Part shown: in pieces, positions 90 to 15,439 of the stretch
How positions within the stretch are numbered: position 1 is the first letter of the stretch
Layout: each line of letters starts with the position of its first letter
DNA from: Candidatus Hydrogenedentota bacterium
Lineage (GTDB): Bacteria; UBA8481; J006
Direction of reading: 5' to 3'
DNA length: 15,439 bases
Assembly (NCBI GenBank): GCA_003697085.1
Contig: RFFU01000036.1
Span: forward strand, 1-15,439
Program-made: the position numbers and the translations under genes
The notes under the pieces: generated by a model
Database searches by the model: none
The model's input: the letters and a program-made list of their open reading frames with translations, nothing else
Told to the model about the DNA's origin: nothing

Positions 90-818
90 TCATCGATCCG
101 CCTCGATCCGGTAAATCGACGGCTTCTCCGCCGGGAAATAACGAGCGACCTTTCGCCCGTGTCCGGGAATCACAAACCAAAGTCCGGCCGCGTTCGCAAG
201 CATTCTCTCACGAATCCGTGTATTCGCGGCGGAATCGGCGGCGGTTCCCACGACGAGATTCCGAAAGAGGTTGTCGTAAACCATCACCTCGTCACCCGCA
301 AGCCAGACTTTTCCGACATCGGCCTCGACGGCGACAACCTGCGAACCCGGCGTATGACCGCCGGCGGGAATGAGCGAGACGCCGGAGGCGATCTCGGTTT
401 CCCCATCGACGAGGCGCAGGCGCCCCTCCCCGGCGATCTCTTCCAGAACCTCCAGCGTCTTCCGATCGACACCGTGAACGCGCTCCCGCTCGTTTTCGGC
501 AAATCCCGCGCGCGCCCATTCGTATTCCTTCCTCTGGAGCCAGACGCGCGCTTCCGAAAACCGTCCCACCGCGCCCGCGTGGTCCCAATGAAGATGCGTC
601 AAAACGAGGTCCGTCACCGCATCCCGCGGGACACCGATCTCCCTCAACAACGTCTCGACCCGCCGGAAATGCCGGATCCGCCACCGCCGCGCGTCCTTTC
701 GACGGAGAAATCCGCAATCAACGAGAATCGTCCGATCCGTGCCGCGAATCAACCATGCATACCATCCCGCGCGTTCTCTTCCCCTCTCCGCTCCGGCATA
801 GAGGTTCTTCCGAGCCAT
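90..818 (-). other. MBL-fold metallo-hydrolase module (242 aa) at the C-terminus of the 90..4088 ORF, with a candidate internal translation start (ATG 818..816) preceded by a GGAG/GAGG SD-like sequence
   Basis: The module begins MARKNLYAG. Minus-strand sequence GGAGAATCGAGG-ATG lies immediately upstream, in-frame, with no stop before it. HLHWDH at 579..596 is the lactonase/glyoxalase-II-type zinc motif. It may be translated both as a fusion and on its own. Confidence 0.5.
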
Positions 819-3800
819 CCTCGATTCTCCGTACTTCAGGGCAAGAACACGCCAGGCATTCCCGCCGGCCGGGCCGGAGCGTGGAGTGGTCGCGGAGGGA
901 AGGAGAACGCTGAGGAGAAGGAGCGCGGGAAGGCCGAACCCCAGTCCCACCCCCGCGCGGCGCATCGAAGCGGTTCCGCGGGAATCGAGAAAGAAGAGCA
1001 GAGCCACGAGAAGATAGAACCCGGCCGCCGCCGAGGCCATCGTCCTGAATCCGAGCATCACCGAAAGGTTCAAGGCCAAGGGCACCGCCAGAGCAGACGT
1101 AACTCCGTTGATCGCAAAGAGAATCGGAGTGTGACGCTCGTGCTCCCTCGCCTGCGCCGCGTGGAGAACGGCGGCGAAGGGTATCCCCATCAGGAAAGAA
1201 AGCGGGGCGAGAGCCGCGAGATTCACGGCGCTCCGGATTCCCGACGGCGAAGAGGAGAAGAATTCGAACACCGCGCCCGCGTAAGCAGGGAATCCGACGG
1301 CCAAAAGGAAGATCGCGGGAGGAACGAGGATCAAGATCGCGGGAGAGATGTGAGAAGCCAGCCGACTGCCCAACGAGGAAAACACAAGCATTCCGCCGAG
1401 AACGACAGCCAGCGAGACCGTTGGAGAGCCGAGAAAGCGTTCGCAGATCTGGAAGAGCGCGATCTCGATCAGAAGATAGGCCAGTCCGGTCAGAAGAGCA
1501 ATCGCCGAGAGAAGTCCCGCGGAAAAGTGTGTCTCCCTCGAAGAATTCCGCAGGCAAAGAGCAATCCCGACGGCGATCAGAAGAACGGCCGGAATCGCGA
1601 CGGGGAGGAGCGCCTCGCGGAGTTCCTTCCGGCTCGGATCGACGAAAAACGGAAACGGACGGTCGTCGGTCGCGGGAACGAGGTTGTAGCGCGCTCGGGT
1701 CGCCTCGCTCAAGCGTCCCTCGATGACTCGGGCGATCGTATTGTCCAGATTCGCTCCGGGAAAATAGAGCGGCGTGCAGACGGCCGTGTGGATCGGTCCC
1801 AGAGTCCCGCCCGCCGCTTTCTCCCGCTCCTTGATCCGATTCACGTCATCCAGCCATTTCCGAAACCGTGCGATCTCCGGTTCGGTCAAGGAACTCTTCT
1901 TCACGAGAATCTGGTAATACCGGTTCTTCCGCGTCGTCCACGAGAAGGCCAAAAGATGCCGTTCGGGCTCGGACACGCCGAGACGGACGAGCGCCTCCCG
2001 CAACGTCAAAAGCATCTTCCAGACGGGGGCTTCGCGGGAAGGACGGTTGACGGGCTCCTCGATCGAGAGAAATCCGCGATCCGTGAGATGTTCGAGAAGC
2101 GCCTTCCCCGCCTCGACCGTATGAAGATATTCCGGTGACGGAGACAATCCAGAGTATTTCCCGCGGGCGAAGTGCGTGTTGAGAAGCGTGATGAAGTCAT
2201 ACCGCTTTTCGGAGCGATCGAGAAATGTCCGACCGTCGATCATTTCCGTCTGAATATCGCCGAAGACGTGAAGGATCTTCCGGCCGAGTTTTCCGTTGAG
2301 AACACGCAAGACGGCCTCGTTGATCTCGACCCCCTCGACCTCGCCGCCGAGATTCACCGCTGTCTTCGTTACGCCTTCGCCGGAAAGTCCGATGATCAGA
2401 ACTGAAGGAGAATCGATTAGATTGTAGGGAAGTCGAGGATCGATGCGGTAGGCTTCTTTGCCCAGAATCCGCAACGTGTCGATCGTCCGACCGTTCTCCT
2501 TGAACTTGAAATAGATGCTTCCCCGTTCCCTCCAGACGACATCGATACGCCCCGCCAGGCTCGATGCCGAGGCGACGAGCGCTCCATTCGGGTAATCCTT
2601 AGCGTAGAGCGGACGCGTCACGGAAAGAAGACGGGTCCGTTGCTGCAATCCCAAGAGGAAAAGAAAGAGAAAGGAAAGCCAGAGATAAGCGCGCCGGAAA
2701 CGTTTTTCGTCTTCTCCAGCACCGTGCGCCGCCTCACCCGAGGAAGAGGCAGCCGCCATCCGAGTGAAGAGAAGGGGGAAAAAAGCAGCCAGAGACGCCA
2801 GAAAGAGGAAGGCCCCCTCTTCCTGCATGATGCGCACGATCGGATCAGCCAGCGCCGCACCCAGAGCCGCGCCGGCCAAGTCCGCGGCGTAGATGCGGGG
2901 ACCGTAAAACCGCCGGAGAAACGTCGTCGTGATGAAACCACAGAGGAGGAAGGGAGGAAGAAGAAAGAGAGCCGCGAGGTACGGATATTTTCCGGCTGCC
3001 GAGGCGGCACCCAGCGCGGCGGGCAAGAAGAACGGAAGAAGAAGGAACGCGGCACTCAGAAATTGCTCGCTTTCTCCTCCTGCCGGTGCCTTCGGAGGAA
3101 AGGCCGCCGCAAACGCACCGACACTGATTCCGAAGAGCGCGATCGCCACGGCGGAAGTCGCCGTAACGTAATCCGCCGAGACCATCAGGACTTGGAAGAG
3201 GACAAGCTCGAGATCGATGGCAAGGAACGCCGTCAGACCCGTGAGGAGAAGGATCCGCCTGGGAGGCTTCTCAACCGGTCGACACGATTCGAGCAATGAA
3301 GTCCCTTTCCCCGACGACGACTTCTCCGACTCCCGCGTTTCTTGCTCGGCGCCTTCCCGGGATCCGTTTTGAAGAAGTATCTCCGGAACCGCGACGCATC
3401 TCGAAAGACGAAGGGAAAAATCGACGAGATGGATCGCGGCGAAGAGGAGAATCTCCCCTTTTATGAGTGCGGGAAGGAGGTGGGTGTTTGCGATCCACGG
3501 CGGATAAAGATGGGTTATAAGCACAAGGAGAAGGAGTAAGAAAAGGGAGTTGTTTTCGTGTTTCGAAAAGCGATCCGGCAGGGCGGCGATGGCGCGCGAT
3601 GCGAGGCGATGGAGAATCCAAAGGGCTGCGGCGGAGAAGAGCAGAAGGTGATAGGGGCCGCGCAAGAGACCGATCGCGTCGAGCCGATGCCAGGAATCGA
3701 AGAGTGTCGTCGGAAAGAAACCGAGGCGGACCGACCAGCGGGAGAACTCCGAGAAGGAGAGAAGGAAGCACGCGGCGGCGGCAAGAGCGCATTCCGAGCG

Positions 3801-4088
3801 AAAACCGAGAACGTTCCGTACGGAAGAAGAGGAACCAGGGGGCGAATTCGAAGAATCGCCAGGGGAACACGCGTCATTGCCAGCGCGGTTCCGCGCGGCA
3901 AGAAAGAGGAGCCCGGCGGCGGCGAAGAGTGCGGAAATGACCCAGGATCCGAGGCTGAGCTGCCGGCCGAAATTGAAGTAGGAATGCCGTCCCTGTCCCC
4001 AACGATACTCGGGAAAGAGAAGATGCATCCCCCCCAGAAGAAAAGGTGTCATTCTTACAATTTGACACTTTCGGAACGAGCGCGTCAT
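90..4088 (-). CDS. Large polytopic membrane protein (1332 aa): TM block 1, spermidine-synthase-like (class I SAM-MTase fold) domain, TM block 2, C-terminal MBL-fold metallo-hydrolase domain. Resembles 'fused MFS/spermidine synthase' proteins but with an extra MBL module.
   Basis: Uninterrupted 1332-codon frame ending in TGA (92..90). Many hydrophobic helices in two blocks, aa ~40-450 and ~830-1065; each has an E-[LI]-x-L-F-Q helix (LELVLFQV at aa 293, IEIALFQI at aa 874). aa ~500-720 looks like spermidine synthase (VLIIGLSGEGVTKTAVNLGGEVEGVEINEAVLRV, DFITLLNTH) with GLSGEG in place of GGGDGG. The C-terminus carries the H-x-H-x-D-H metallo-beta-lactamase signature THLHWDHAG (nt 579..596) plus a downstream GGHTPGS and an HG pair. 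Start is ambiguous: in-frame ATGs at 4088, 4052 and 4028; the first two lie in a duplicated start-region repeat. Confidence 0.7.
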   Translation of the reverse strand: MTRSFRKCQIVRMTPFLLGGMHLLFPEYRWGQGRHSYFNFGRQLSLGSWVISALFAAAGLLFLAARNRAGNDACSPGDSSNSPPGSSSSVRNVLGFRSECALAAAACFLLSFSEFSRWSVRLGFFPTTLFDSWHRLDAIGLLRGPYHLLLFSAAALWILHRLASRAIAALPDRFSKHENNSLFLLLLLVLITHLYPPWIANTHLLPALIKGEILLFAAIHLVDFSLRLSRCVAVPEILLQNGSREGAEQETRESEKSSSGKGTSLLESCRPVEKPPRRILLLTGLTAFLAIDLELVLFQVLMVSADYVTATSAVAIALFGISVGAFAAAFPPKAPAGGESEQFLSAAFLLLPFFLPAALGAASAAGKYPYLAALFLLPPFLLCGFITTTFLRRFYGPRIYAADLAGAALGAALADPIVRIMQEEGAFLFLASLAAFFPLLFTRMAAASSSGEAAHGAGEDEKRFRRAYLWLSFLFLFLLGLQQRTRLLSVTRPLYAKDYPNGALVASASSLAGRIDVVWRERGSIYFKFKENGRTIDTLRILGKEAYRIDPRLPYNLIDSPSVLIIGLSGEGVTKTAVNLGGEVEGVEINEAVLRVLNGKLGRKILHVFGDIQTEMIDGRTFLDRSEKRYDFITLLNTHFARGKYSGLSPSPEYLHTVEAGKALLEHLTDRGFLSIEEPVNRPSREAPVWKMLLTLREALVRLGVSEPERHLLAFSWTTRKNRYYQILVKKSSLTEPEIARFRKWLDDVNRIKEREKAAGGTLGPIHTAVCTPLYFPGANLDNTIARVIEGRLSEATRARYNLVPATDDRPFPFFVDPSRKELREALLPVAIPAVLLIAVGIALCLRNSSRETHFSAGLLSAIALLTGLAYLLIEIALFQICERFLGSPTVSLAVVLGGMLVFSSLGSRLASHISPAILILVPPAIFLLAVGFPAYAGAVFEFFSSSPSGIRSAVNLAALAPLSFLMGIPFAAVLHAAQAREHERHTPILFAINGVTSALAVPLALNLSVMLGFRTMASAAAGFYLLVALLFFLDSRGTASMRRAGVGLGFGLPALLLLSVLLPSATTPRSGPAGGNAWRVLALKYGESRMARKNLYAGAERGRERAGWYAWLIRGTDRTILVDCGFLRRKDARRWRIRHFRRVETLLREIGVPRDAVTDLVLTHLHWDHAGAVGRFSEARVWLQRKEYEWARAGFAENERERVHGVDRKTLEVLEEIAGEGRLRLVDGETEIASGVSLIPAGGHTPGSQVVAVEADVGKVWLAGDEVMVYDNLFRNLVVGTAADSAANTRIRERMLANAAGLWFVIPGHGRKVARYFPAEKPSIYRIEADR

Positions 4089-4422: not shown

Positions 4423-5199
4423 TCAGAAAAGATGGAGGAAATCGTGGACGAAGATCATTGGCGCCGGGAGTCCATTGATATTGACCACGGCGACGGAGAG
4501 GATCTCAAGGTTCTTTCCGGCGCCTTCCTTCAAAGAATGGTACTCCGTCTCAAGGATTTTCATTTGACGCGCGGCATGTTCCCGGGCCATTACGAGTAGG
4601 CGAACGTTCTCGGGGATCTTGGCGATTCGTTCACGATCCGGTTTTTTCCACTGTTCCTCGACATCCTCGAGAAACTCGTTGCCTTCCTTTCCTTCGAGCA
4701 CGGCGTTCAGTGCTCCGCAACAATCTGACTCACGAGTATAGCGCATCAACACGCCGAATCGCGATTCGGCCGAGGGGTCCTCGAAGGAGTTCCACTCGGG
4801 AAGGTACATGCGGTCCGTTACCCGGAGGGGGAGAATGACACCACAGTGCGACTGGATCCAGACGATCAGCAATAACGGCCTTCCGCGGTCGAAGTGATCG
4901 ACGGCCAGGTCAAGTATCCCGGCGGGAAAGACAGCGCCAGGCGTGGAGACGATCATCGGAGAGCGTTTCCCATCCGGAAGAGGGCGAAGAGACCGCGCGA
5001 TTTCCAGTACTCGGTCAAGCAAGCGGGCTCGACGAAAGAGATTCACAGTTTCCCTGGGATTTCGTTTCATCCGTTCCGGGGCGTCCTTCAGCTGCTCTTC
5101 GAGAAAGGCAAGGTCTTCCTTGTCGGGAAGGGAATCGGGATCAAACGCTGCGGCGGCCAATTCCGTCGCCTTCTTGATCCTGTTCCAGAATTCAGCCAT
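4423..5199 (-). CDS. Hypothetical protein, 258 aa (gene D of the AAA_5 cassette); no recognisable motif
   Basis: Start ATG at 5199..5197 is preceded by a near-perfect SD GGAGGAGGTGA (5205..5215 on plus coordinates) with a 5-nt spacer. Stop is TGA (4425..4423). The track's upstream GTG extension MSLLILEEVIP was rejected in favour of the SD-supported MAEFWNRIKK start. Ordinary amino-acid composition, unlike the antisense frames. Confidence 0.7.
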   Translation of the reverse strand: MAEFWNRIKKATELAAAAFDPDSLPDKEDLAFLEEQLKDAPERMKRNPRETVNLFRRARLLDRVLEIARSLRPLPDGKRSPMIVSTPGAVFPAGILDLAVDHFDRGRPLLLIVWIQSHCGVILPLRVTDRMYLPEWNSFEDPSAESRFGVLMRYTRESDCCGALNAVLEGKEGNEFLEDVEEQWKKPDRERIAKIPENVRLLVMAREHAARQMKILETEYHSLKEGAGKNLEILSVAVVNINGLPAPMIFVHDFLHLF

Positions 5200-8101
5200 C
5201 GGAATCACCTCCTCCAGGATCAAGAGTGACACGGAGTACGGAATACGCCGCGAACCGTTCGTGCGGATTCACGATCGTAAACGGCAGTTCCTCGATCACG
5301 GTTTCCTTCAACCCGCGATTCGTAATCACGCCCCACGTGATCCTCAAAAGCGCCTCGTTGGACGAGAGAACGCGGAATTCCACCTCCTCCGCCTCATGCT
5401 CCACCCCTTGCGCCTGTTTGTCCTCCAGCACGGTGCGATTATCGACCTTCTGACCGTCATACATGATGACCGGATGGTCCTCGTCGTGAATGTAAATGTA
5501 GGCGCCTTTCTGAAACCCGTATCCTCGAATCCGATACTCGCGCGGTTCAAACTCTCTCGTCTGTCCGAGAGGAATAAGGAGACGATCCTCATATTCTCCG
5601 ACGAATTCCGGCATCCCATCCGCGTCTTCATCGCGGGGCAAATCGGGCGGCTTCGTTACGGCCGCTTCGAAGCCACCAGGCCGCTTTTCTTCCGTTCTTT
5701 TCCCACTCGTGGAATCCGCCGTGCCAACCGAGGCTGGGGGAGGGATCACGACGACGGCCGGCTTAATCTGCACCGAGGAGAAGGCCTTTTTGAGGCGTTC
5801 GAGCGTTTCCTCCGGCAATGTCATCTCGACACGGGAGTCCGCGCCTTCTCTGCTCCGCTCCTCCTCCCGGGCCCTTCGTTCTTCCTCGAGCCTCCGCGCC
5901 CGCGTCTCCAACTCCTCGCGCCTCTTCCTCTCCTCCTTCTCCCTCCGGCTTCGTTCTTCCCTCTCCCAGTCCGCGCGCCGATCGAACCATTCCTTAAGGC
6001 TCTCCAAACCCCCGCCGATCGTTTCTCCGATCGCGTCGAGCCCTTCTTTGAAAGAGGCCAGATGAACCGCGACCCGGCCGACGGGATCACTCTCGTCCGT
6101 TTTGGCAAAGAGAAGATTCCGCCAAAAGGTCTTTTTGATCTCTTCCCATCGTTCCTTCTCCGTCTCAGTCAATGTCCCGCAGAGTTCCTTGAACTTCAAA
6201 AGATTCGCCTCGGCTCCGGTTGTCAAGGTCTGAGCCTCATTTCGGTAATGTTCGTCCAGCAGCGCTCGAATCTCCTCCTCGTTCATCACCGGAAGGACGC
6301 GTTCCGCCAGGCGGTTCATATTCCTGTACGATCCCTGGAGTTTGAACGGAGGCTCGGTTCGATACTCGTCAGCCTGGGCGGCGGAGGCAATGTATTCCTG
6401 ATTGACCCGAAGGACGATATCGCGAATCCGCAAGAGGCGCTTCATCACCTCGACCATCTCATTGAGTTCCTCGGGCGCGTACTGGCCTTCGAAGGCGCTG
6501 GAATCGACCGCCCCTCCTTCGGCCATGCGGATAATCGCGATCACATCCCCGCGGCTTCGCTGCGCCAAGCGGGAAAGGATCGGATTCGAGGTGACGGCGT
6601 TCTCGAGGTAGCTCCGGCGAAAGGCCTCCGCATTGGCACTGACGATGTCGCCGAGGTTGTAGGTATCAGCGCGGTTCGCCAGCATATCCGGAATCACGAA
6701 CTTTTTGCCGCTTTCGGTGTACGGATTGCCGGCCATGACGACCATAACCTTCCGGCCGCGCAAGTCGTAGGTTCGGGTCTTCCCTTGAAAGACTCCTTCG
6801 ATCCGCCGTTGAGCGTCGCAAAGGGATATGAACTTCTGGAGAAATTCGGAATTCGTGTGCTGAATATCATCGACGTAAAGCATTACATTGTCGCCCATTT
6901 CGAGCGCGAGGTTGGCCTTTTCGATCTCTTCCCGCGCCGCCGCATTCAGCGCCTCGGCGGGATCGAGCGAAGTTACGGCGTGGCCGAGCGCCGGTCCGTT
7001 GATCTTCATAAAGGTCATCCCCAACCTGTTCGCCACATACTCCATCAACGTCGTCTTCCCATACCCCGGTGGGGAAATCAGCAGAAGCAATCCCAGCCGA
7101 TCGGTCCGTTTTGCGTCCCCCGCTGCGCCGATCTGCTTCGCCATATTGGCCCCGATCAAAGGCAAATAATGTTCGTCGATCAACTGGTTCCGTACGAATG
7201 TCGTCAGAACCCGCGGTTTGAATTCGTCGAGGCGGAGTTCCTCGCGCTTCCGAGCGAGGCATTCCTTCTTTCTGGCAAGGTATTCTCGAAACGCCGGAAC
7301 AGCCTCTCGTTCGAATCGTTCCAGTTTCTCCATAAAGGAAAGATAGTCGAGACGATACGTTCCCTGCCGGATCACGGGATGGGAACCGACCATTCCCTTC
7401 ACGAGTGCCGTGAAGGAGACCGTTCCCTCATCCGTTCCATCACCGAAACCCGGATCTCTTTTTCCCGCATCCTCGTAAAGAAGCATCACGCCGGCCTCGT
7501 CGAGAAAACGGTAATCCAGTGGAACGATTCTCTCTTGTCCCCCAGACACTTCCTCCCTCCCCTCTTTCCTCGCGGTCGGATCATGTTCTGCGGCGACGGG
7601 ATATTCGTTCTCGATCCCGGAGCCGCCTTCACGGCGTCTTTCGGAGGCGAAAAGCGCCAGCCAGTCGCGAATCACGTCCCATTCGGCACGCCGATCGCCC
7701 GCCACGGCTTCGCGAGCCGCGGCGAAGGCCTCCTCCGCACCGCGCTCCCGAAGGTCCTCGTAAAAGATTCGCACGATCTCTTTCGCCGGTCGGCTCGACA
7801 GAAATCTCTCCCCGCTCGAAAGCACCTCAAAGAGGTACTCCGCCGTCTTCTCCGCATCGGCGGGATCGAACCATCCTCCGTTCTCCGCGAAATTCTTGAT
7901 CCGCTTCCACAGTTCCCGGATATAACGCTCCTTTCGTGGTTCAACAGCGAAGGTTCGCTCGGCCCTTCCCGCACTCGTAATTCTGGCCTCCAGCGACGGT
8001 TTCGCTTCCGAATCCTGCCATTCGTTCCAGAAAATCCGGGCCGCAGCGCGGACACGCGGAGCAAACCTGAAGAGACCAATCGTCCGATGAATCCGTGCCA
8101 A
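5192..8101 (-). CDS. Large AAA+ ATPase of the AAA_5 (MoxR/dynein-related) type, 969 aa, with a ~330-aa N-terminal extension, an ER-rich helical linker and a C-terminal domain of unknown function (gene C)
   Basis: Walker A LLLISPPGYGKTTLMEYV (GYGKTT codons at 7049..7066). Walker B VMLYVDDIQ (about 6860..6886). Sensor region VVMAGNPYTESGKKFVIPDMLANRADTYNL matches the MoxR/AAA_5 pattern NP..E.G...[IL]P.A.L.R. Charged linker DRRADWEREERSRREKEERKRREELETRARRLEEERRAREEER at 5831..5986. Stop TGA at 5194..5192. The track's start is TTG 8101 with no SD and no internal ATG for 200 codons, so the exact start is uncertain. Confidence 0.85.
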   Translation of the reverse strand: MARIHRTIGLFRFAPRVRAAARIFWNEWQDSEAKPSLEARITSAGRAERTFAVEPRKERYIRELWKRIKNFAENGGWFDPADAEKTAEYLFEVLSSGERFLSSRPAKEIVRIFYEDLRERGAEEAFAAAREAVAGDRRAEWDVIRDWLALFASERRREGGSGIENEYPVAAEHDPTARKEGREEVSGGQERIVPLDYRFLDEAGVMLLYEDAGKRDPGFGDGTDEGTVSFTALVKGMVGSHPVIRQGTYRLDYLSFMEKLERFEREAVPAFREYLARKKECLARKREELRLDEFKPRVLTTFVRNQLIDEHYLPLIGANMAKQIGAAGDAKRTDRLGLLLLISPPGYGKTTLMEYVANRLGMTFMKINGPALGHAVTSLDPAEALNAAAREEIEKANLALEMGDNVMLYVDDIQHTNSEFLQKFISLCDAQRRIEGVFQGKTRTYDLRGRKVMVVMAGNPYTESGKKFVIPDMLANRADTYNLGDIVSANAEAFRRSYLENAVTSNPILSRLAQRSRGDVIAIIRMAEGGAVDSSAFEGQYAPEELNEMVEVMKRLLRIRDIVLRVNQEYIASAAQADEYRTEPPFKLQGSYRNMNRLAERVLPVMNEEEIRALLDEHYRNEAQTLTTGAEANLLKFKELCGTLTETEKERWEEIKKTFWRNLLFAKTDESDPVGRVAVHLASFKEGLDAIGETIGGGLESLKEWFDRRADWEREERSRREKEERKRREELETRARRLEEERRAREEERSREGADSRVEMTLPEETLERLKKAFSSVQIKPAVVVIPPPASVGTADSTSGKRTEEKRPGGFEAAVTKPPDLPRDEDADGMPEFVGEYEDRLLIPLGQTREFEPREYRIRGYGFQKGAYIYIHDEDHPVIMYDGQKVDNRTVLEDKQAQGVEHEAEEVEFRVLSSNEALLRITWGVITNRGLKETVIEELPFTIVNPHERFAAYSVLRVTLDPGGGDSDG
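5200..5215 (-). promoter_or_regulatory. Shine-Dalgarno GGAGGAGGUGA for gene D, embedded in the last codons of the ATPase gene; the genes are 8-nt coupled (ATGGCTGA, start of D overlapping stop of C)
   Basis: Minus strand reads GGA GGA GGT GAT TCC GAT GGC TGA, which encodes the ATPase C-terminus G-G-G-D-S-D-G-stop. ATG is at 5199..5197 and TGA at 5194..5192. Confidence 0.8.
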
Positions 8102-8150
8102 GGGTTCAAGGATCGCGGCCGCATCGAGATCGTGGACGCCTTTGACGTAT

Positions 8151-8158
8151 CCCTCCTT
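8151..8158 (-). promoter_or_regulatory. Strong SD-like AAGGAGGG directly after the gene B stop codon, with no canonical start codon 4-12 nt downstream
   Basis: Minus strand reads ...CGC TAG AAG GAG GGA TAC GTC AAA GGC.... The next in-frame canonical start is TTG at 8101, about 50 nt away. Confidence 0.4.
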
Positions 8159-9634
8159 CTACCGCGGCGTGGCGAAAGCCCGCATCCAGTCCAAACGCTC
8201 CTCCGGCGTCTTCTCGAGGAACTCCGCCACACCTCCCTCCCCTTCCTCGAGCGCCTTCAAGGCGCAAGCGGCGAGATATTCCGCACGATAGATTTCCTCG
8301 TTCTCCGAAAGCACTTCCTGCTTCCAGACCGGCCGCGTCGCGAGGAATTCCGGATCGCTCACCTTTTCGAAATACCGTATTCCCGTGAGGTGGTAATACA
8401 TCTCTCCGTCACGCTCAACCATCGTGCAATCGAGGGGCTGGGTGTTGACAGAGAAACGATATTTTCCGAAGCGAATGATCTTTTCGCCATCCTCGTAAAG
8501 TTCCCGCGCATCGCGGAGTTGGCGCACCGTTTCTTGCTGGAGCGTCTTGAGACGACCGAGGAGATCGTCAGCTTTAACGGAATCACCGAGCGCCTGGAGT
8601 TGTTCCACGAGGTCGCGGACCTTAGCGACCATCCTATCCGATGCGTACCAGGCGTTGAGGTCCTCGAGCGTCCTGAAGGCGGAGGCGCGCGACCGGATGC
8701 CATTGAGAACCCGTTCGGCGGCGGCGTAGAGCGCCTGCGCCCGCCTGTTCCGTTCCTCGACGAGCCGAACCTTACGAGAGGTGAAAGCGGAGGAAATCTC
8801 CTCGCGCTTCTCGACCATCGTTCCGATGAACTCGTCAAAGTCGGCGAACCTCCCCTCCATCTCCTCCAACTGAAGCATAACCTTCGTGAGATTCTCGTCG
8901 CATTTTTCAGGGGTATCGCTGAGGTCGAGGTAATTGGCAACGGATTGGTTGAGGAGTTTCACCTGCGCATTAAAATGGGCGGTGCCCTCCACGCGCGACA
9001 GATCCTTCCGCCGGTTCTTCAAGAGGGCCTTGACCTGGTTGAGGCGCGCGTAGATCGCGGAGATGTCATCGATAATCCGCGTCGCCTCCGTGGCATCCTC
9101 GATCTCGAGATTCCCGACGATCTCGATCAGCATCTCCAACTGAGCCGCGGTCTCCGTAATCCGTTTCTCCAGAGCGTCCGCCTCCGTCACCTTCCCCACT
9201 GCCTCGAGCTCCTTCTTCGCCTCTTCCACACGAGTCGCATACGGATCGAGCGCGCCGTCGGAAAGAAGAAAGGCGACGCATTTTCGGGAAAGATTGTCGG
9301 TCTCTTCGCGGACGCGTTCCTCCAGAGTATCGAGCAGGGCGAGATCGACGTAGCGTAGTTCGCGCGCCGAGATAATCGCCCCCCGGCAGCCGCGCAAGGC
9401 CGCCAAGCGTTCAACAAACACGTCTATCGCCTCGAACGATCCCCGCCGCGCCTCCTCCAACACCTCCTCCGTCCGCCGCTCGATCTCCGCCACGCGATCC
9501 GCCGTCTCCTTCCGAATTCGTCGCACCTTCTCAAACTCCTCGATCGCCGCGCGGGCTGTGTCTCGAATCGCTTCCAACGGCTCTCGAACCCGGAAGGCTC
9601 CGTCCTCCCCCAGCCAAAAGTAGGCGTCAATCAC
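8159..9634 (-). CDS. Hypothetical coiled-coil-rich protein, 491 aa (gene B)
   Basis: Long E/R/K/A/L heptad-like stretches, which suggests a helical or coiled-coil protein. GTG start at 9634 has no SD and lies 27 nt after the gene A stop, so translational coupling is possible. Stop TAG at 8161..8159. It is in the same frame as gene C. Confidence 0.65.
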   Translation of the reverse strand: MIDAYFWLGEDGAFRVREPLEAIRDTARAAIEEFEKVRRIRKETADRVAEIERRTEEVLEEARRGSFEAIDVFVERLAALRGCRGAIISARELRYVDLALLDTLEERVREETDNLSRKCVAFLLSDGALDPYATRVEEAKKELEAVGKVTEADALEKRITETAAQLEMLIEIVGNLEIEDATEATRIIDDISAIYARLNQVKALLKNRRKDLSRVEGTAHFNAQVKLLNQSVANYLDLSDTPEKCDENLTKVMLQLEEMEGRFADFDEFIGTMVEKREEISSAFTSRKVRLVEERNRRAQALYAAAERVLNGIRSRASAFRTLEDLNAWYASDRMVAKVRDLVEQLQALGDSVKADDLLGRLKTLQQETVRQLRDARELYEDGEKIIRFGKYRFSVNTQPLDCTMVERDGEMYYHLTGIRYFEKVSDPEFLATRPVWKQEVLSENEEIYRAEYLAACALKALEEGEGGVAEFLEKTPEERLDWMRAFATPR

Positions 9635-9660
9635 ACCGGTGGGAGACGCACGAGATCAAA

Positions 9661-10965
9661 TTAGAGGTTGGCGTAGGTGTCCTCTTTTTCGATCAGGTTC
9701 AGAACATCGTGACAATCGGCCAAACATCCGACCACAGCCGGATTGCTGATCTTGTAGAGGTAGGAATCCGTCTTTTCCTCCAGCACAACGTTCGGACCGA
9801 CGTACGGAGTCCGCCAGACCTGGAGCAGGTGATGTTTCCGCGGCTCATTTTCGCCCTTGAAGAGAACCATCTCCCCAGTATCAAAAAGCGTGAAACCGTT
9901 GCACACGATGGGCGTCTCCAGCCTCTGTTCGACTCGGTTGTACGAAAGAAGGACATAGACCCCCGAGGCGCGATTGTAGAAGACGCAGAGGAAATCCTCG
10001 CCGTTCCGCGCCTCGATCCGGCGAGAATACACCATCCCCGACAGCTCATCCTCGAATACCTTGTGCTCGCCTGTCTGGAGATAGTATCTGTTGTGAAAGA
10101 TGATCCCCCGCCCGTCCGGCAAGAGAACACAGGACTCGCCGATTTGATCGATCCGCTGGACCTCCTGGAGTTTCTCGTTGAAAACGAGGTACCGAAACTC
10201 CTTCTCTTGAAAAGGACGAATCTTCATCAGGATGAGATGCCCGAGGATGGCGTAGTAGATTTCGGCGTCGTCGAGCGTCTGATCGGGATCCAAAACGGGT
10301 TCGGAATAGATTCCTTCGCCGGTCTCCGTATTGTCTTCCACCTTGACCGTCAGGTCTCCTCCGACCGTTTCGACGAAGACACGATCTTCAATCGAGATGT
10401 GCGGATGGGTGCCGTAACGGTGAAAATCGCGAATCACGCGCTTCCATTCAAACTCGTGCGGCGGGGGGAAGTGATACTCGTGATCAAAGCGGTTGCCGAG
10501 ATAGCGAATTCCTTCCTCCGTCACCGCCCACTTGAAGCACTTGAGGTCATCGATGTCCCTTCCCACTTGAAAAGCCATATAGAGAAAATCGTCCATCCGA
10601 CGAAAATCCGAAAAGACCGTCTCTCGATAATACTTATAGAGTTCGGCGAAATCGCGTCCAAATTCCGGATCACAAATCGGATCCAGGTCCCGCGGCACGA
10701 ATTTCCGATCCGCGAATTCGTACACGGCGAAGACATCTTCCAATTTCACCTCCCGCTTCAGGCCCATTCTCACGTTATAACCGAAGAGAAAACGGTCCCC
10801 TCCAAGAAGCACCATATCGCGTGGACTACAGTTGTACTTGGTGGTAATGCGTTCGGTCGAGACGAGGGCGAATTCGATCGAGCCGAAGACGCGCTTGCGC
10901 TCCGCATTGAGCCGTTCGACGCGGCGGCGCAATTCCGCCCCGTGTTCGAGAAGCCGTTTCCGCAA
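9661..10965 (-). CDS. Hypothetical protein, 434 aa, beta-rich C-terminal half (gene A); possible N-terminal extension to ATG 11209 if a frameshift sits at the G8 tract
   Basis: Open frame with ordinary composition and no recognisable catalytic motif. The annotated start TTG 10965 lacks an SD. The frame is open upstream to 11115 and reads ...TPEGIEAGTYEILRKRLLEHG..., which looks protein-like. Stop TAA at 9663..9661. Confidence 0.65.
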   Translation of the reverse strand: MRKRLLEHGAELRRRVERLNAERKRVFGSIEFALVSTERITTKYNCSPRDMVLLGGDRFLFGYNVRMGLKREVKLEDVFAVYEFADRKFVPRDLDPICDPEFGRDFAELYKYYRETVFSDFRRMDDFLYMAFQVGRDIDDLKCFKWAVTEEGIRYLGNRFDHEYHFPPPHEFEWKRVIRDFHRYGTHPHISIEDRVFVETVGGDLTVKVEDNTETGEGIYSEPVLDPDQTLDDAEIYYAILGHLILMKIRPFQEKEFRYLVFNEKLQEVQRIDQIGESCVLLPDGRGIIFHNRYYLQTGEHKVFEDELSGMVYSRRIEARNGEDFLCVFYNRASGVYVLLSYNRVEQRLETPIVCNGFTLFDTGEMVLFKGENEPRKHHLLQVWRTPYVGPNVVLEEKTDSYLYKISNPAVVGCLADCHDVLNLIEKEDTYANL

Positions 10966-11088
10966 AATTTCGTATGTTCCCGCCTCGATCCCCTCGGGAG
11001 TTGCGGGCCCTGGTCCCGCTTCCGACCCCGCCCCCTCCTCGCCGGCGTCGCGCTGAACGGGAAGCCTCGTGGAAACGCTTGACGCAGG

Positions 11089-11096
11089 CCCCCCCC
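11089..11096 (-). repeat. C8 (plus strand) / G8 (minus strand) homopolymer at the junction of two overlapping minus-strand frames
   Basis: ggcc-cccccc-gaac. The frame starting at ATG 11209 (MAEEKEMADRSEPAG...) and the gene A frame differ by +1 across this run. Confidence 0.6.
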
Positions 11097-11224
11097 GAAC
11101 CAGGGCTCTCTCCGGCTAACCCGTCTCCCGCCCCGGCCGGGCCGGTCTTGGAAGTCGAGGTATTTCCGGCGGGTTCGGACCGGTCCGCCATCTCTTTCTC
11201 TTCAGCCATCTTCCGGGCGCGTTT

Positions 11225-11254
11225 CCGGAACGGAGATTCCCGCGAGCGTTCCGG
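11225..11254 (-). other. Hairpin (8-bp stem ccggaacg/cgttccgg, 14-nt loop) immediately after the flotillin stop codon; overlaps the palindromic 12-mer gtttccggaaac. No U-tract, so not a canonical intrinsic terminator.
   Basis: Stem arms at 11225-11232 and 11247-11254, read from the sequence. The flanks are GC-rich, not T-rich. Confidence 0.35.
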
Positions 11255-13273
11255 CTAGGCCTCGGCCCCCCCAAGGAACTCGCCGACGATCTCGGAACCG
11301 ATCCCGGCCTTCTCGGCGTGCTCCGCAAGCGTCTTCAAACCGGCTCGAACGTCGTCCGAATCAGCCAAGGCCGTCAGTTTCGCCAAAGCAGCGGCGACGC
11401 TGAGGTTCTTGAGGTCGGCCGTGGAAAGGCCGAACTGATCGCACCACTTCCGGATCTGGCGGCGAAAGTATCCGGGGTCGGAGCGGAAGAAGGTTCCCTT
11501 GATGTCTCCCAGGACGCGGCTGCTTCCAACAGTGCGGTCCACCGCCTTGCCCGCCGTGATGGCGTTGACGATCTTGTCGAAGAAGGCCGTCTCGCCGCCG
11601 ACGATATCGACCTTGGCGTTCTTGAGCGCTTCGGCCACGACGGCCGCCTGCGCTTCGGCGATGTCCTTCCGGATCTGGATTTCGGCCAAGGCGATTTCCT
11701 TCTCGATGTTCGCGCGGATCTTGAACTCCTCGTGTTCGCGGCCTGATTCATTGAAGAGTTTCATCGCTTCGGCCTTCTTCGTGATCCCGTCCGCGTCCGC
11801 CTCGAACTTCAAGCGCATCACCGTGGCTTCGGCCGTTCCCTGTTTTTCGGTCGCAACAGCTTTGGCCTCGAGAACTTGCGCCTCGGCCAGTCCCGGCGCG
11901 GCGGTCTCGGCCGTGATCCCCTCCGCCAGGGCCTTTTTTTCGGCAGCAAGCTTCACGTTCGCGTTCTGCTCTCCTTCCGCTTCGATGACCTTCTTCTGCG
12001 CGATAAGTTCGGCGGCGCGGCGCTGCGCTTCCGCGGCCTTGACCTGTTTCACCAACTCCTGTTCCGCATCCGCCTTCGCAAGCGTAATCGCGACCTTCTT
12101 CTCACGTTCCGCCGTCGCGAACTCCTCCGTATCCTTCACCCTCTGCTCCTCCGCCACGACCTCCTTCTGCACCGCCACTCTCTGGCGTATCACTTCCTGA
12201 ATGTTCTTTTTCTCGATCTCGACAGCCTTCTGCTTCTCAATGTCATTCAGGGTCACGACCTTCTCGCGCTCAATATCCTCCAGCTGGCGTTCCTTCTGAA
12301 CGCGAACCTGCTCGACCGCGTCCGTCCGCTCTTTGTTCCGCTGCGCCACAATGATCTGGTGGAGTTTGTTCTGCTCGGCCACCTGCACCTCTTCCTCCGT
12401 CGCGATGCGTGACTTTTCCGCCTTCAGGCGTTCCTCCTGTTAAATCCGAATTGTTTCCGCTTCCTCGCGCGCCTTGATCGCCGCCACCTCGCGCTTCTGT
12501 TTCTCCTCCGCTTCCGCCAACTGGCGATTTTGCTCCAAGATCATCTCACGCGTCTCGACATTCTTTTTGTTGATGTCGCGTTCTTTGTTCCGCTGGAATT
12601 CGTTCGTCAACACGGCCTGCGCCGCCGTCCGCTCGGTTATCAACTTGATCCCTTCCGCATCGAGAACATTTTCGGGATCGAGGTCCTCGATCTTGGTCTG
12701 TTCGAGAAGGTCGATCGCGGCATCGTCGAGGATATAGCCATTGAGGTCGGTTCCGACGGCCTTGAGGATCGCTTCACGAAAGGCCTTCCGCTTGTTCAGA
12801 AGATCCTCGAAGTTAAACTCACGCCCCGCCGTCTTCAGTGCATCCGAAAACTTCGGCTCGAAGAGTTCCGAAAGAACCTGGGGATCCGAGGCACGCTGGC
12901 ATCCGATCGTCTGCGCCACATGCTTGATCATCTCTTGATCCTCGCTCTCCACCCGGACGTAAAAGGTGACCTGAATGTCCGCTCGAAGGCTATCGCGACA
13001 GATCAACCCCGTCGGCCCGTGACGGTGAATCACGACTTCCTTGACGGAGATATCCATTACCTCCAGGCGATGGACGATCGGAAGTACAAAAATGCCGCCG
13101 GCCGTGGCAACCTTGATCCCGCCCAGCCCCGTGCGTACCAGGGCCTGTCCCTGACGGGGGATTCGTTAAGTCCACCCGACGATAAGACGAATGATTCCAT
13201 AGAGGACGGTAAAAAGAACAAGCCCTCCAAAGAGATACCCGACAATCGACAATACGGATAGAAATGCACCCAT
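11255..13273 (-). pseudogene. Flotillin-family (SPFH/band-7) gene interrupted by two in-frame TAA codons (13168..13166 and 12442..12440); the frame is otherwise intact over 672 codons
   Basis: N-terminal membrane anchor MGAFLSVLSIVGYLFGGLVLFTVLYGIIRLIVGWT, then TAA. Next comes RIPRQGQALVRTGLGGIKVATAGGIFVLPIVHRLEV-MDISVKEVV..., which matches the flotillin/FloT pattern (GPDEALIVTG...GGGTFVLP), followed by SPFH-domain sequence (ADIQVTFYVRV...). Then TAA, then a long EA-rich flotillin-type C-terminal region (QEERLKAEKSRIATEEEVQVAEQNKLHQIIVAQRNKE...AEAQRRAAELIAQKK...) ending in TAG at 11257..11255. Strong SD GGGAGGGG at 13279..13286, 5 nt before the ATG at 13273. All three segments share frame (top coordinate = 1 mod 3), verified codon by codon. 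Confidence 0.75.
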
Positions 13274-13573
13274 CGATACCCCTCCCAAAAGAGAAAATCT
13301 TTTTCTAAATCACATCGCAGCGCAACGGTAACATCGTGCCGTTTTCCCGGCACCCCCTTTCCTCGAATTCGGATGCGTGGCGAAAAAGGATACCTTTTGC
13401 CGGATCGGGTCGGTCAACTCTTGGGCGAAACCCCGCATCGGATCGGGGCGGCCGAAAGGTGATCCTCTACGAAGCCGTTTTTTCAGACCTGCCTACGAGA
13501 AGACCCAGACGGAGCGCCATTGCTGAGAGTGCTGGTTCTCCAACCTGCGGAGGGCGGTTCGGTGCTTCGCAGA

Positions 13574-13658
13574 CTAGAAGCGGTTTCATAAGGCTCCCTT
13601 CCTCCTTGATAATGCAGGAGTTCCGAGGCCGTAACGGTACTTATGAAACCGCTTCTAG
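13574..13658. repeat. Perfect 19-bp inverted repeat (ctagaagcggtttcataag / cttatgaaaccgcttctag) with a 47-nt spacer that itself holds a small ctcct/aggag hairpin; lies in the flotillin-adhesin divergent non-coding region
   Basis: Arms at 13574-13592 and 13640-13658 are exact reverse complements. They do not extend past the arms. Confidence 0.75.
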
Positions 13659-13731
13659 AGAGTCTAGGCTCCATCGTGGAACGGAGATGGTGCGCGTGGG
13701 AGATTCCTCGTCAGCCTCCGGCCTCCTCGGA

Positions 13732-13771
13732 ATGACACCAGGGGGGGAGCGAAGCGACACCCTGGTGTCAT
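13732..13771. other. Stable GC-rich hairpin: 13-bp stem (atgacaccagggg / cccctggtgtcat) with a 14-nt loop gggagcgaagcgac; no adjacent U-tract
   Basis: Arms at 13732-13744 and 13759-13771 are exact complements. Confidence 0.65.
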
Positions 13772-14092
13772 CTCGAGTTCGCCGCAAAACGAACGAGGAA
13801 TCCCCTCCCCACGGTATCCCGAGCGAAGGGCAACGGCAAGGGCAAGAAAAAGGGAATAAGAAACCTGTCCTGAGGGCGCATGCCTGCCTACCCGCGGCCG
13901 GACATCTTGCCTGCGGATGGTGGTCCACAGCGCGGCGGGTGAGCGCGGACTCTCCAGTCCGCGGGCAGAAGTGTGCCCTCCGGGCCGGCTTCGAGCCGCA
14001 GCGGATCCGAATCACCCGTCCGAGAGCGGAAGTGTGTGTTCTCTCATTTTCTCCGTGTCGCCACCTCCCTGCCGAATTTTGTGCACATCGGT

Positions 14093-14125
14093 TCCAGTCT
14101 TAAACATTAATTTCCAATAATTCCT
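14093..14125 (+). promoter_or_regulatory. AT-rich island in otherwise GC-rich DNA, 75-105 bp upstream of the adhesin-like gene; candidate promoter (AATAAT -10-like at 14116-14121; weak -35)
   Basis: cagtcttaaacattaatttccaataattcc. The composition is anomalous locally, but no good sigma-70 -35/-10 pair with 17-bp spacing is present. Confidence 0.25.
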
Positions 14126-14197
14126 CTCCGCCATCCCGCCGATGAAATAACCCTACTCATCGAAACAGACCAGGAACGTGCAGGAGGAGAGGTTTTC

Positions 14198-15439
14198 GTG
14201 TCAGAGAAAGGGGATTGTCACCCGCCGCGATTTATCGGGGCCCTTTTTCGGACACGAGAACTACGCCTGCTTCTCTTCTTCGGGGGCCTTCTCTTTGGAA
14301 CTCATCCCGCGGTGAGGGCCGAGGTTCGGTCCCACGTATTGTGGCCTCCCCCGGGAGCGATCGTGAATGACACCGTCGTCGTCCGCTGGACGGCGACCTA
14401 CTCCGGCGGCGACGTGGGAGGCGACACGCGCTTCGGAGTCCTGAGGAATTTCGAAAACATCGACGGGATCAAGGCCTCGGGCAATCCGCCGGGCGGAGAC
14501 CCGCCGCCGGACAGCACCGTTCCCGTAACCGGCCCGGGCAGCACCCATCTCTGGAACACGCGCGAGGTTCCGGACGGCATCTGGCATCCAAACATCTTCA
14601 TTCGGGAAGGTAATGCCGCCGGAGACGACTACGACGGCGATACGGAGGGCCCGGAAGTTCTCGTGGACAACACGCCGCCGTGGATCACGGAGATGGATCT
14701 CACCGGTTGGGACGGATTACCGTTCGTGCAGGGGAAACCCGGGGACACGGCGCGGATCGAGGCGCGGGTCGCGGCTCAGGGCGCGCCCCTGGATACGACG
14801 AGCGTTCTTCTGACGCTTCCCAACGGGACGACGATGTTGATGGGAGACACGGGGAACTACGGGGATCGCTTCGCCAATGATTCGGTCTTCACGGCGATCT
14901 TCACGCTCTCCGACTCTCCAACGGGAACCTATCAGATCACGGTCACGGTGCGGGACACCTTTCCCACGATGCCTGTTTCGAACATTCGTACGGCCTCCGA
15001 AGGATTCTTTCTCGACAACGACACGGCGACGATTCTTTACATCACAACGACCGACCCGGACACGATCTACCGAAACGGGCAAACGATCACCTTTCAAGTC
15101 TTCGCGGACACGAACGCCTCCGGGCCCGGCGAGAGCGGTTTGACCGTTACAGCGAACTTTCTCAATGTCGATGACCGGTACATCCAAAACGCCGAGGTCT
15201 TCTCGGACGACGGAAGCGGCACGTATACCGTCCGCTACACGATCTCCCTGAACAACACTCTTCCCAACGGCAACGACAGCCGCATCATCGTGCGGGTTGA
15301 GGACGCCGTCGGAAATTTCGACACGGAGATCTGGCTCGTTTCGCTCGACAACTCCGGCCCCACGATGGATTCGCTCGTCATCTCCGATCTCCAGATCGGA
15401 ACCGATTCGGCCTTCGACCAATTGTTGAACGACAACGAC
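14198..15439 (+). CDS. Secreted surface/adhesin-like protein with tandem Ig/cadherin-like beta-sandwich repeats (partial; runs off the 3' end of the window)
   Basis: This frame (start coordinate = 2 mod 3) is open from 14111 to the window end and is absent from the ORF track because it has no stop. GTG start at 14198 follows SD AGGAGGAGAGG (14182..14192) with a 5-nt spacer. Signal-peptide-like N-terminus RTRELRLLLFFGGLLFGTHPAVRA-EV. Repeated boundary motifs VDNTPPWI, LDNDTATI, LDNSGPTM. T/S/D/N-rich strands (GTYQITVTVRD, GTYTVRYTISL) are typical of bacterial Ig-like/cadherin-like adhesin domains. Confidence 0.75.
   Translation, partial: MSEKGDCHPPRFIGALFRTRELRLLLFFGGLLFGTHPAVRAEVRSHVLWPPPGAIVNDTVVVRWTATYSGGDVGGDTRFGVLRNFENIDGIKASGNPPGGDPPPDSTVPVTGPGSTHLWNTREVPDGIWHPNIFIREGNAAGDDYDGDTEGPEVLVDNTPPWITEMDLTGWDGLPFVQGKPGDTARIEARVAAQGAPLDTTSVLLTLPNGTTMLMGDTGNYGDRFANDSVFTAIFTLSDSPTGTYQITVTVRDTFPTMPVSNIRTASEGFFLDNDTATILYITTTDPDTIYRNGQTITFQVFADTNASGPGESGLTVTANFLNVDDRYIQNAEVFSDDGSGTYTVRYTISLNNTLPNGNDSRIIVRVEDAVGNFDTEIWLVSLDNSGPTMDSLVISDLQIGTDSAFDQLLNDND

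Follow-up and report, generated by a model that had tools for sequence, protein, structure and literature searches.

Two in-frame TAA codons interrupt a flotillin-like gene in the 15,439-nucleotide stretch of DNA analysed here (contig RFFU01000036.1 of assembly GCA_003697085.1, Candidatus Hydrogenedentota bacterium; the whole stretch is referred to as the window), and the question raised by this locus is whether the gene has decayed, has been misassembled or is still translated in spite of its stops. A preliminary description of the window, made from the sequence, listed a very recent pseudogene, sequencing or assembly errors, strain-specific nonsense alleles and translational read-through as options, and it considered the flotillin gene in isolation. 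We found that the stops are real but that the decisive context had been missed, namely an adjacent ATPase gene with two nonsense codons and two frameshifts. The evidence favours the first of the four options: with a probability of about 0.8, the locus represents the recent pseudogenisation of a dispensable flotillin-ATPase module in a Candidatus Hydrogenedentota population of the Jinata Onsen hot spring. The phenomenon is an ordinary one, and the correct unit to be considered is the whole two-gene operon with its six lesions, not the flotillin gene alone.

The features of the flotillin-like gene are as follows (in the alignment columns, letters are residues and numbers are the homologues carrying them).

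11255..13273, minus strand: flotillin-like gene (SPFH/Band 7, YqiK-type), 672 codons plus TAG, with two internal TAA codons; most likely a pseudogene
13279..13286, minus strand: motif GGGAGGGG of Shine-Dalgarno type, seen in the sequence itself 5 nt upstream of the flotillin ATG (13273-13271)
13166..13168, minus strand: first premature TAA (codon 36), separating the membrane anchor from the SPFH domain; alignment column Y96/F19/W5
12440..12442, minus strand: second premature TAA (codon 278), within the coiled coil; alignment column Q68/E36 plus a few others
11255..11257, minus strand: natural stop TAG of the flotillin gene; the C-termini of homologues lie 0-12 residues away

Translation of the minus strand from 13273 to 11258, with the TAG at 11257 following, yielded exactly two internal stops, in agreement with the 672-codon frame described before, in which TAA occurs at 13168-13166 and 12442-12440 and is followed by C in both cases (TAA-C context). 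The reported absence of indels was borne out as well. When the frame was compared with an intact orthologue of 678 amino acids, a single tblastn high-scoring segment pair covered residues 4-674 at 71% identity, and as this one match runs across the gene in an ungapped frame, the flotillin gene contains neither frameshifts nor indels. The start signals of the gene are still intact. Scans for promoters and terminators gave background-level scores only.

When about 5.8 billion protein clusters were searched with this frame, 7,215 matched at E ≤ 1e-10. Among those listed, the top matches were 641-723 amino acids long, shared 49-71% identity (53-71% for top matches covering 93-100% of the query), originated mostly from Verrucomicrobiota and Planctomycetota, and were labelled 'flotillin family protein' or 'YqiK' in sources including NCBI and JGI; this full-length similarity places the protein in the large flotillin/YqiK group of the databases. 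The segment between the two TAA codons scored 51.9 bits (E = 1.2e-13) against the Pfam family Band_7/SPFH (PF01145, cut-off 23.6), which places the protein in the SPFH/Band 7 superfamily. The full composite sequence gave no Pfam Band_7 match, probably because the HMMER filters reacted to the coiled coil. The N-terminus is strongly hydrophobic (19-residue Kyte-Doolittle mean of 1.9-2.2 over residues 1-30), so that a membrane anchor preceding the SPFH domain is predicted from hydropathy, and E, A and K abound in the tail. The gene had been called a textbook flotillin. The hydrophobic anchor, the SPFH domain and the E/A/K-rich tail are indeed present, but the term is too strong: the protein matched neither the Flot domain nor an NCBIfam flotillin model, Band_7 was its sole Pfam family, and no solved structure in the Protein Data Bank matched its sequence. 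Bacterial flotillins such as B. subtilis FloT (YuaG) and E. coli YqiK likewise begin with an N-terminal anchor, followed by the SPFH/Band 7 domain (PF01145) and then by a long coiled coil rich in E, A and K. FloT, with its 509 amino acids, is shorter than the flotillin-like protein (about 690 amino acids), and whereas floT and yqiK are accompanied by a gene for an NfeD protein, the partner here is a DUF3686-DUF7902-AAA ATPase. Unlike the known flotillins, the copy in the window is interrupted by two stop codons.

Sense codons had been anticipated at both TAA positions, and the columns given above, taken from an alignment of the best 120 homologues, agree with this. The first TAA falls in the conserved motif GWT-[YF]-RIPxQGQALVRTG and the second in AREEAETxxxQQE. 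In the nearest orthologues the first position is encoded by TAC or TTT (TAC in the nearest one) and the second by CAG; each flotillin TAA is therefore one base away from the expected sense codon. In none of the homologues did a natural gene boundary coincide with either position.

That both flotillin stops are real was supported by a second assembler applied to a single run. An exact-protein look-up uncovered a 1,714-bp Logan contig from run SRR7905022, which is a Jinata Onsen source-pool metagenome, and this contig carries both TAA codons. It is identical to window positions 13654..11941 at 1,713 of 1,714 nucleotides, the sole difference being a synonymous GAT/GAC. In the Jinata Onsen study, the reads were of the 2x100 bp Illumina HiSeq 4000 type and MEGAHIT was used for the joint assembly of four samples.

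In the public annotation, the pieces of the operon are deposited as separate coding sequences and not as pseudogenes. The SPFH fragment (window positions 12443-13162, minus strand) is the 240-amino-acid 'hypothetical protein D6679_03900' (RMH58741.1), for which a start was forced at an ATC located two codons past the first TAA.

The ATPase gene, which is co-oriented with the flotillin gene and lies downstream of it, carries four lesions.

5192..11209, minus strand: DUF3686-DUF7902-AAA ATPase gene (ATG 11209, TGA 5194), divided by four lesions into at least three pieces
11089..11096, minus strand: likely +1-nt frameshift at or near a G8 homopolymer; exact site inferred, as the linker is not conserved
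9661..9663, minus strand: premature TAA no. 3 of the operon; aromatic column Y18/F7, NL-stop-FDLVR against NLYLDIVRK
~9641..9645, minus strand: 1-nt loss in a TCCC run, six codons after the TAA at 9663
8159..8161, minus strand: premature TAG within the motif Y-x-EGY-x-[KR]-G-[VI]-HD, at a position that is invariably Tyr (29 of 29 orthologues)

The N-terminus encoded from ATG 11209 (MAEEKE..., VAEEKQ... in the orthologue) is out of frame with the DUF3686 domain, and the DUF3686 frame contains no ATG, GTG or TTG from its upstream stop at 11118 down to position 10965. The TAA at 9663, which seems to terminate the DUF3686 open reading frame (ORF), is itself premature. The loss of one nucleotide near 9645-9641 restores the first ATPase frame, and the reconstructed FDLVRLxTGVIDAYFW is equal in length to the orthologue's LDIVRKTTTVIDTYFW.

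In the relatives this gene is continuous. Among relatives with long contigs, the two closest have, within 60-340 nt of the flotillin gene, a single downstream ATPase gene of 1,905 or 1,798 amino acids, in which the DUF3686-DUF7902-AAA architecture is encoded by one ORF. Of 33 genome loci from Bacteroidota, Actinomycetota, Deltaproteobacteria and Verrucomicrobiota, 29 had an intact flotillin gene together with a continuous single-frame ATPase gene, as did one JGI contig. A flotillin of about 690 amino acids and, directly after it, a DUF3686-DUF7902-AAA ATPase of 1,700-1,900 amino acids form a module conserved across at least four phyla. At other loci the module is damaged: Saccharothrix xinjiangensis has kept only fragments of both genes (10001-12117 of the locus), the ATPase gene of Streptomycetaceae bacterium MP113-05 shifts frame internally (12122-17018 of the locus), and in Streptomyces pratisoli the flotillin gene lacks an adjacent ATPase gene. 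The module is therefore dispensable and has been lost repeatedly. PADLOC defence-system models matched only marginally (LmuB 9e-06, IetA 0.0025), and the module is not catalogued among known defence systems.

Over its 8,037 nt, the operon thus contains six lesions, of which four are nonsense codons and two are frame changes, and the remaining ~6,100 nt of coding DNA on the contig (gene A, a 269-amino-acid ORF and an ORF at the right end, all described below) contain none; under uniform placement, this clustering has p = 0.034. Each of the four nonsense codons occupies a column where a sense codon is conserved and differs by one base from the codons of the orthologues. Where intact orthologues read sense in one frame, the operon has four stops and two frame changes, as would be expected of two pseudogenes. 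When nonsense codons and homopolymer frameshifts are restricted to a single transcription unit and orthologues elsewhere are intact, the pattern is the standard signature of pseudogenisation. The locus resembles ordinary recent bacterial pseudogenes also in that these lesions are independent and the remainder of the unit is well conserved, and in that other lineages have lost or degraded the module. It differs from them in the over-representation of Tyr among the nonsense sites.

According to the scenario that we favour, the two-gene module would have lost its function recently, and disabling changes would be building up neutrally. Those now interrupting the two genes are four nonsense changes of a single base each (TAY to TAA, CAR to TAA, TAY to TAA and TAY to TAG) and two 1-nt homopolymer indels. 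On the flotillin mRNA, ribosomes would terminate once the membrane anchor of 35 residues had been made. We infer that no functional SPFH protein or ATPase would be produced and that the inactivation was recent. Large deletions are absent from the operon. The flotillin frame deviates five times at columns with at least 97% conservation among the homologues (the median of the other homologues is 0, and 6 of 120 reach at least five), and the ATPase deviates four times at near-invariant columns, compared with three to seven times in its nearest orthologues, both comparisons being underpowered. Conserved columns thus show no clear surplus of missense changes, a pattern that a recent event would produce. 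As a rough estimate, 1 in 20-25 random substitutions yields a stop, and four nonsense codons would therefore correspond to about 1% neutral divergence. Such divergence is undetectable without a close relative, and the databases hold none: we found no intact allele of the same species, an exact-DNA scan of JGI contigs gave 0 matches, and the sequences closest to the flotillin frame were 71% identical among the protein-cluster matches listed and 50% identical in the GTDB genome scan.

Several observations weigh against the decay of the module. Apart from the six lesions, both genes appear from the alignments to be conserved to the same degree as intact orthologues, which excludes long-standing decay but, formally, does not exclude retained function. 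The support from an independent assembly is limited to the two flotillin TAA codons; an exact-ORF look-up, in which the NCBI contig itself is not indexed, retrieved no independent contig over the four ATPase lesions. Finally, three of the four nonsense codons replace a conserved Tyr, which plain neutral decay does not predict.

The consensus of a co-assembly could have joined knock-out alleles segregating in different strains, other cells keeping the operon intact. The contig does come from a MEGAHIT co-assembly of four samples, the synonymous site that differs in the single-run Logan contig indicates strain variation, and the good conservation of both genes would fit very young alleles. However, that single-run contig carries both flotillin TAA codons together, and no intact, near-identical allele emerged from the 5.8 billion protein clusters (best listed match 71%) or the JGI contigs; we regard such a mixture as unlikely, and it would in any case be a population-level variant of pseudogenisation and not a different mechanism. 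The lesions might alternatively be artefacts of assembling a metagenome at low coverage, both genes being undamaged in the organism itself. Each frameshift falls in a homopolymer run (G8 and CCC), the clustering of the lesions is only modestly significant, and the four ATPase lesions lack a second source. On the other hand, indel and substitution errors are rare in Illumina HiSeq data, gene A is free of lesions over its 4 kb, and a different assembler reproduced both flotillin stops from a single run with one base differing in 1,714 nt. Four stop-creating substitutions arising by chance would imply an error rate of ~1%, which the 99.94% agreement rules out. For the flotillin stops, the error option of the preliminary description can thus be largely rejected, and for the operon as a whole we consider it very unlikely.

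The pieces might also be translated separately, as products of a functional gene fission: an SPFH protein of 205 amino acids from the ATG at 13057, a stand-alone DUF3686 protein and a DUF7902 plus AAA protein. In-frame restart codons are available (ATG 13057, GTG 12388, TTG 10965, GTG 9634 and TTG 8101), and the pieces were called as separate coding sequences in the NCBI annotation. The GGAGG noted earlier 2 nt upstream of the ATG at 13057 is present; at that distance, however, it is too close to serve as a Shine-Dalgarno sequence, and it encodes the conserved L-E-V of HRLEVMD, so the anchor-less 205-amino-acid product proposed on its basis is weakly founded. That product would lack the anchor as well as the first 37 residues after it. 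The other restarts are GTG or TTG codons without evident ribosome-binding sites, the depositor's 240-amino-acid call required an ATC start, and no relative has a natural gene boundary at these positions. Fission therefore seems to us highly improbable.

The identity of the replaced residues deserves separate consideration. The nonsense codons at 13168, 9663 and 8161 replace a conserved Tyr (the first two in Tyr/Phe columns) and that at 12442 replaces Gln; none of them is TGA. Given the codon content of the operon, Tyr codons account for 11-16% of the single-base routes to a stop (transition/transversion ratios 1-4), and the probability that at least three of four nonsense codons hit Tyr is about 0.005-0.014, a post hoc value with n = 4. 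Speculatively, a mutational bias acting on coding-strand C (TAC to TAA or TAG, CAA to TAA) would fit all four sites. The bias could also mean that Tyr is inserted at these stops, either by a tRNA-Tyr acting as an ochre-type suppressor (its UUA anticodon would read both UAA and UAG) or by efficient near-cognate read-through, and that flotillin is still made. The column of the fourth stop varies (Q/E/A/R/S), and it could accommodate Tyr, or the codon could be read by tRNA-Gln. TGA is missing among the in-frame stops, the coding quality of both genes is otherwise preserved, and both flotillin stops are followed by C. TAA-C is the weakest termination context in E. coli, and near-cognate tRNAs are able to insert Tyr and Gln at UAA and UAG. 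However, the two ATPase frameshifts are beyond rescue by any tRNA, the contexts of the ATPase stops are strong or ordinary (TAA-T and TAG-A), and the flotillin gene is terminated by TAG at its conserved C-terminus. In addition, stops occur at these four sites in none of the relatives, and tRNA and Rfam scans of the window found nothing. TAR (TAA or TAG) is found at 0 of the 32 Tyr positions of gene A, compared with about 1.2 expected, which is weak evidence. The literature searched contained no bacterial code with UAA/UAG read as Tyr. We therefore give little credence to suppression of this kind, and even less to a natural partial recoding of UAA/UAG to Tyr by an ochre-type suppressor, in which flotillin would be made and the frameshifted ATPase alone would be dead. 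If the latter were true, TAR at conserved Tyr positions would be phenotypically silent and free to drift into genes.

Two further candidates were rejected. Reassigned or suppressed stop codons are known from TGA read as Trp or Gly in some bacteria, TAG as Gln in recoded phages, and TAR as Tyr in Mesodinium and some mitochondria, and the operon resembles such cases in having in-frame stops where homologues share one amino acid (Tyr at three of four). In contrast to them, TAG continues to act as a terminator here, at 11257, within 0-12 residues of the C-termini of homologues; the stops are confined to one operon, frameshifts co-occur with them, and the cognate tRNA was not seen in the window. 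In the 15 kb of the genome covered, no in-frame TAR was found in gene A (1,332 codons), the 269-amino-acid ORF or the 443-codon right-end ORF. We thus agree with the earlier judgement that codon reassignment is unlikely, although one of its supports fell away: gene A, said to be terminated by TAA, ends in TGA. A conserved programmed read-through was rejected as well, since sense codons occupy the positions in 120 protein homologues, in 29 genome orthologues and in one DNA-level JGI match. This last one, with TAC, was the only match in a degenerate DNA scan of JGI metagenomes that is independent of gene calling.

The remainder of the window contains the following genes in the orientation of the operon.

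4423..5232, minus strand: ORF of 269 amino acids, possible third gene of the operon, appears intact; overlaps the 3' end of the ATPase gene by 41 nt
90-4088, minus strand: gene A, 1,332 amino acids (RMH58735.1), ends in TGA

The 269-amino-acid ORF matched no Pfam, NCBIfam or PADLOC model. It is weakly similar (28% identity) to the C-terminal third of a 526-amino-acid gene that follows the ATPase gene in one of the two closest relatives, and may represent a third, variable member of the module. Gene A encodes a long polytopic membrane region, a middle part and a C-terminal metallo-beta-lactamase fold. A homologue of its middle part carries Pfam PF01564, which we take to be spermidine-synthase-like, and the whole architecture is rare, only 2 other clusters among the 5.8 billion reaching E ≤ 1e-20. 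Upstream of the flotillin gene, the ~840 bp at 13274-14110 hold no convincing gene; the ORFs in this region are Arg/Ser/Gly-rich without Pfam matches, neither tRNA nor Rfam scans match in it, and it does not resemble the genes that precede flotillin in relatives. At 14111-15439 (plus strand) a 443-codon reading frame is still open where the contig ends on the right. Its signal-peptide-like hydrophobic stretch and Thr/Asp/Gly/Asn-rich body suggest that it probably encodes a secreted or surface protein. Long antisense ORFs in the codon-aligned frame at 4943-9358, 159-2138 and 9709-11082 (plus strand; 1,471, 659 and 457 amino acids, respectively) are not genes and result from the near absence of TTA, CTA and TCA codons in the sense genes (0-3 per gene).

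The probable pseudogenisation of the module has a consequence for annotation: the deposited fragments, named 'hypothetical proteins' and in one case given a forced ATC start, should be flagged as two pseudogenes. The pair of a flotillin and a DUF3686-DUF7902-AAA ATPase appears to be undescribed in the searchable literature, where we found no paper on DUF3686 (PF12458), and it is possibly worth more than the pseudogene finding itself, as is the unexplained preponderance of Tyr among the nonsense sites. More generally, an in-frame stop in a metagenome-assembled genome should be read together with its operon before recoding is invoked.

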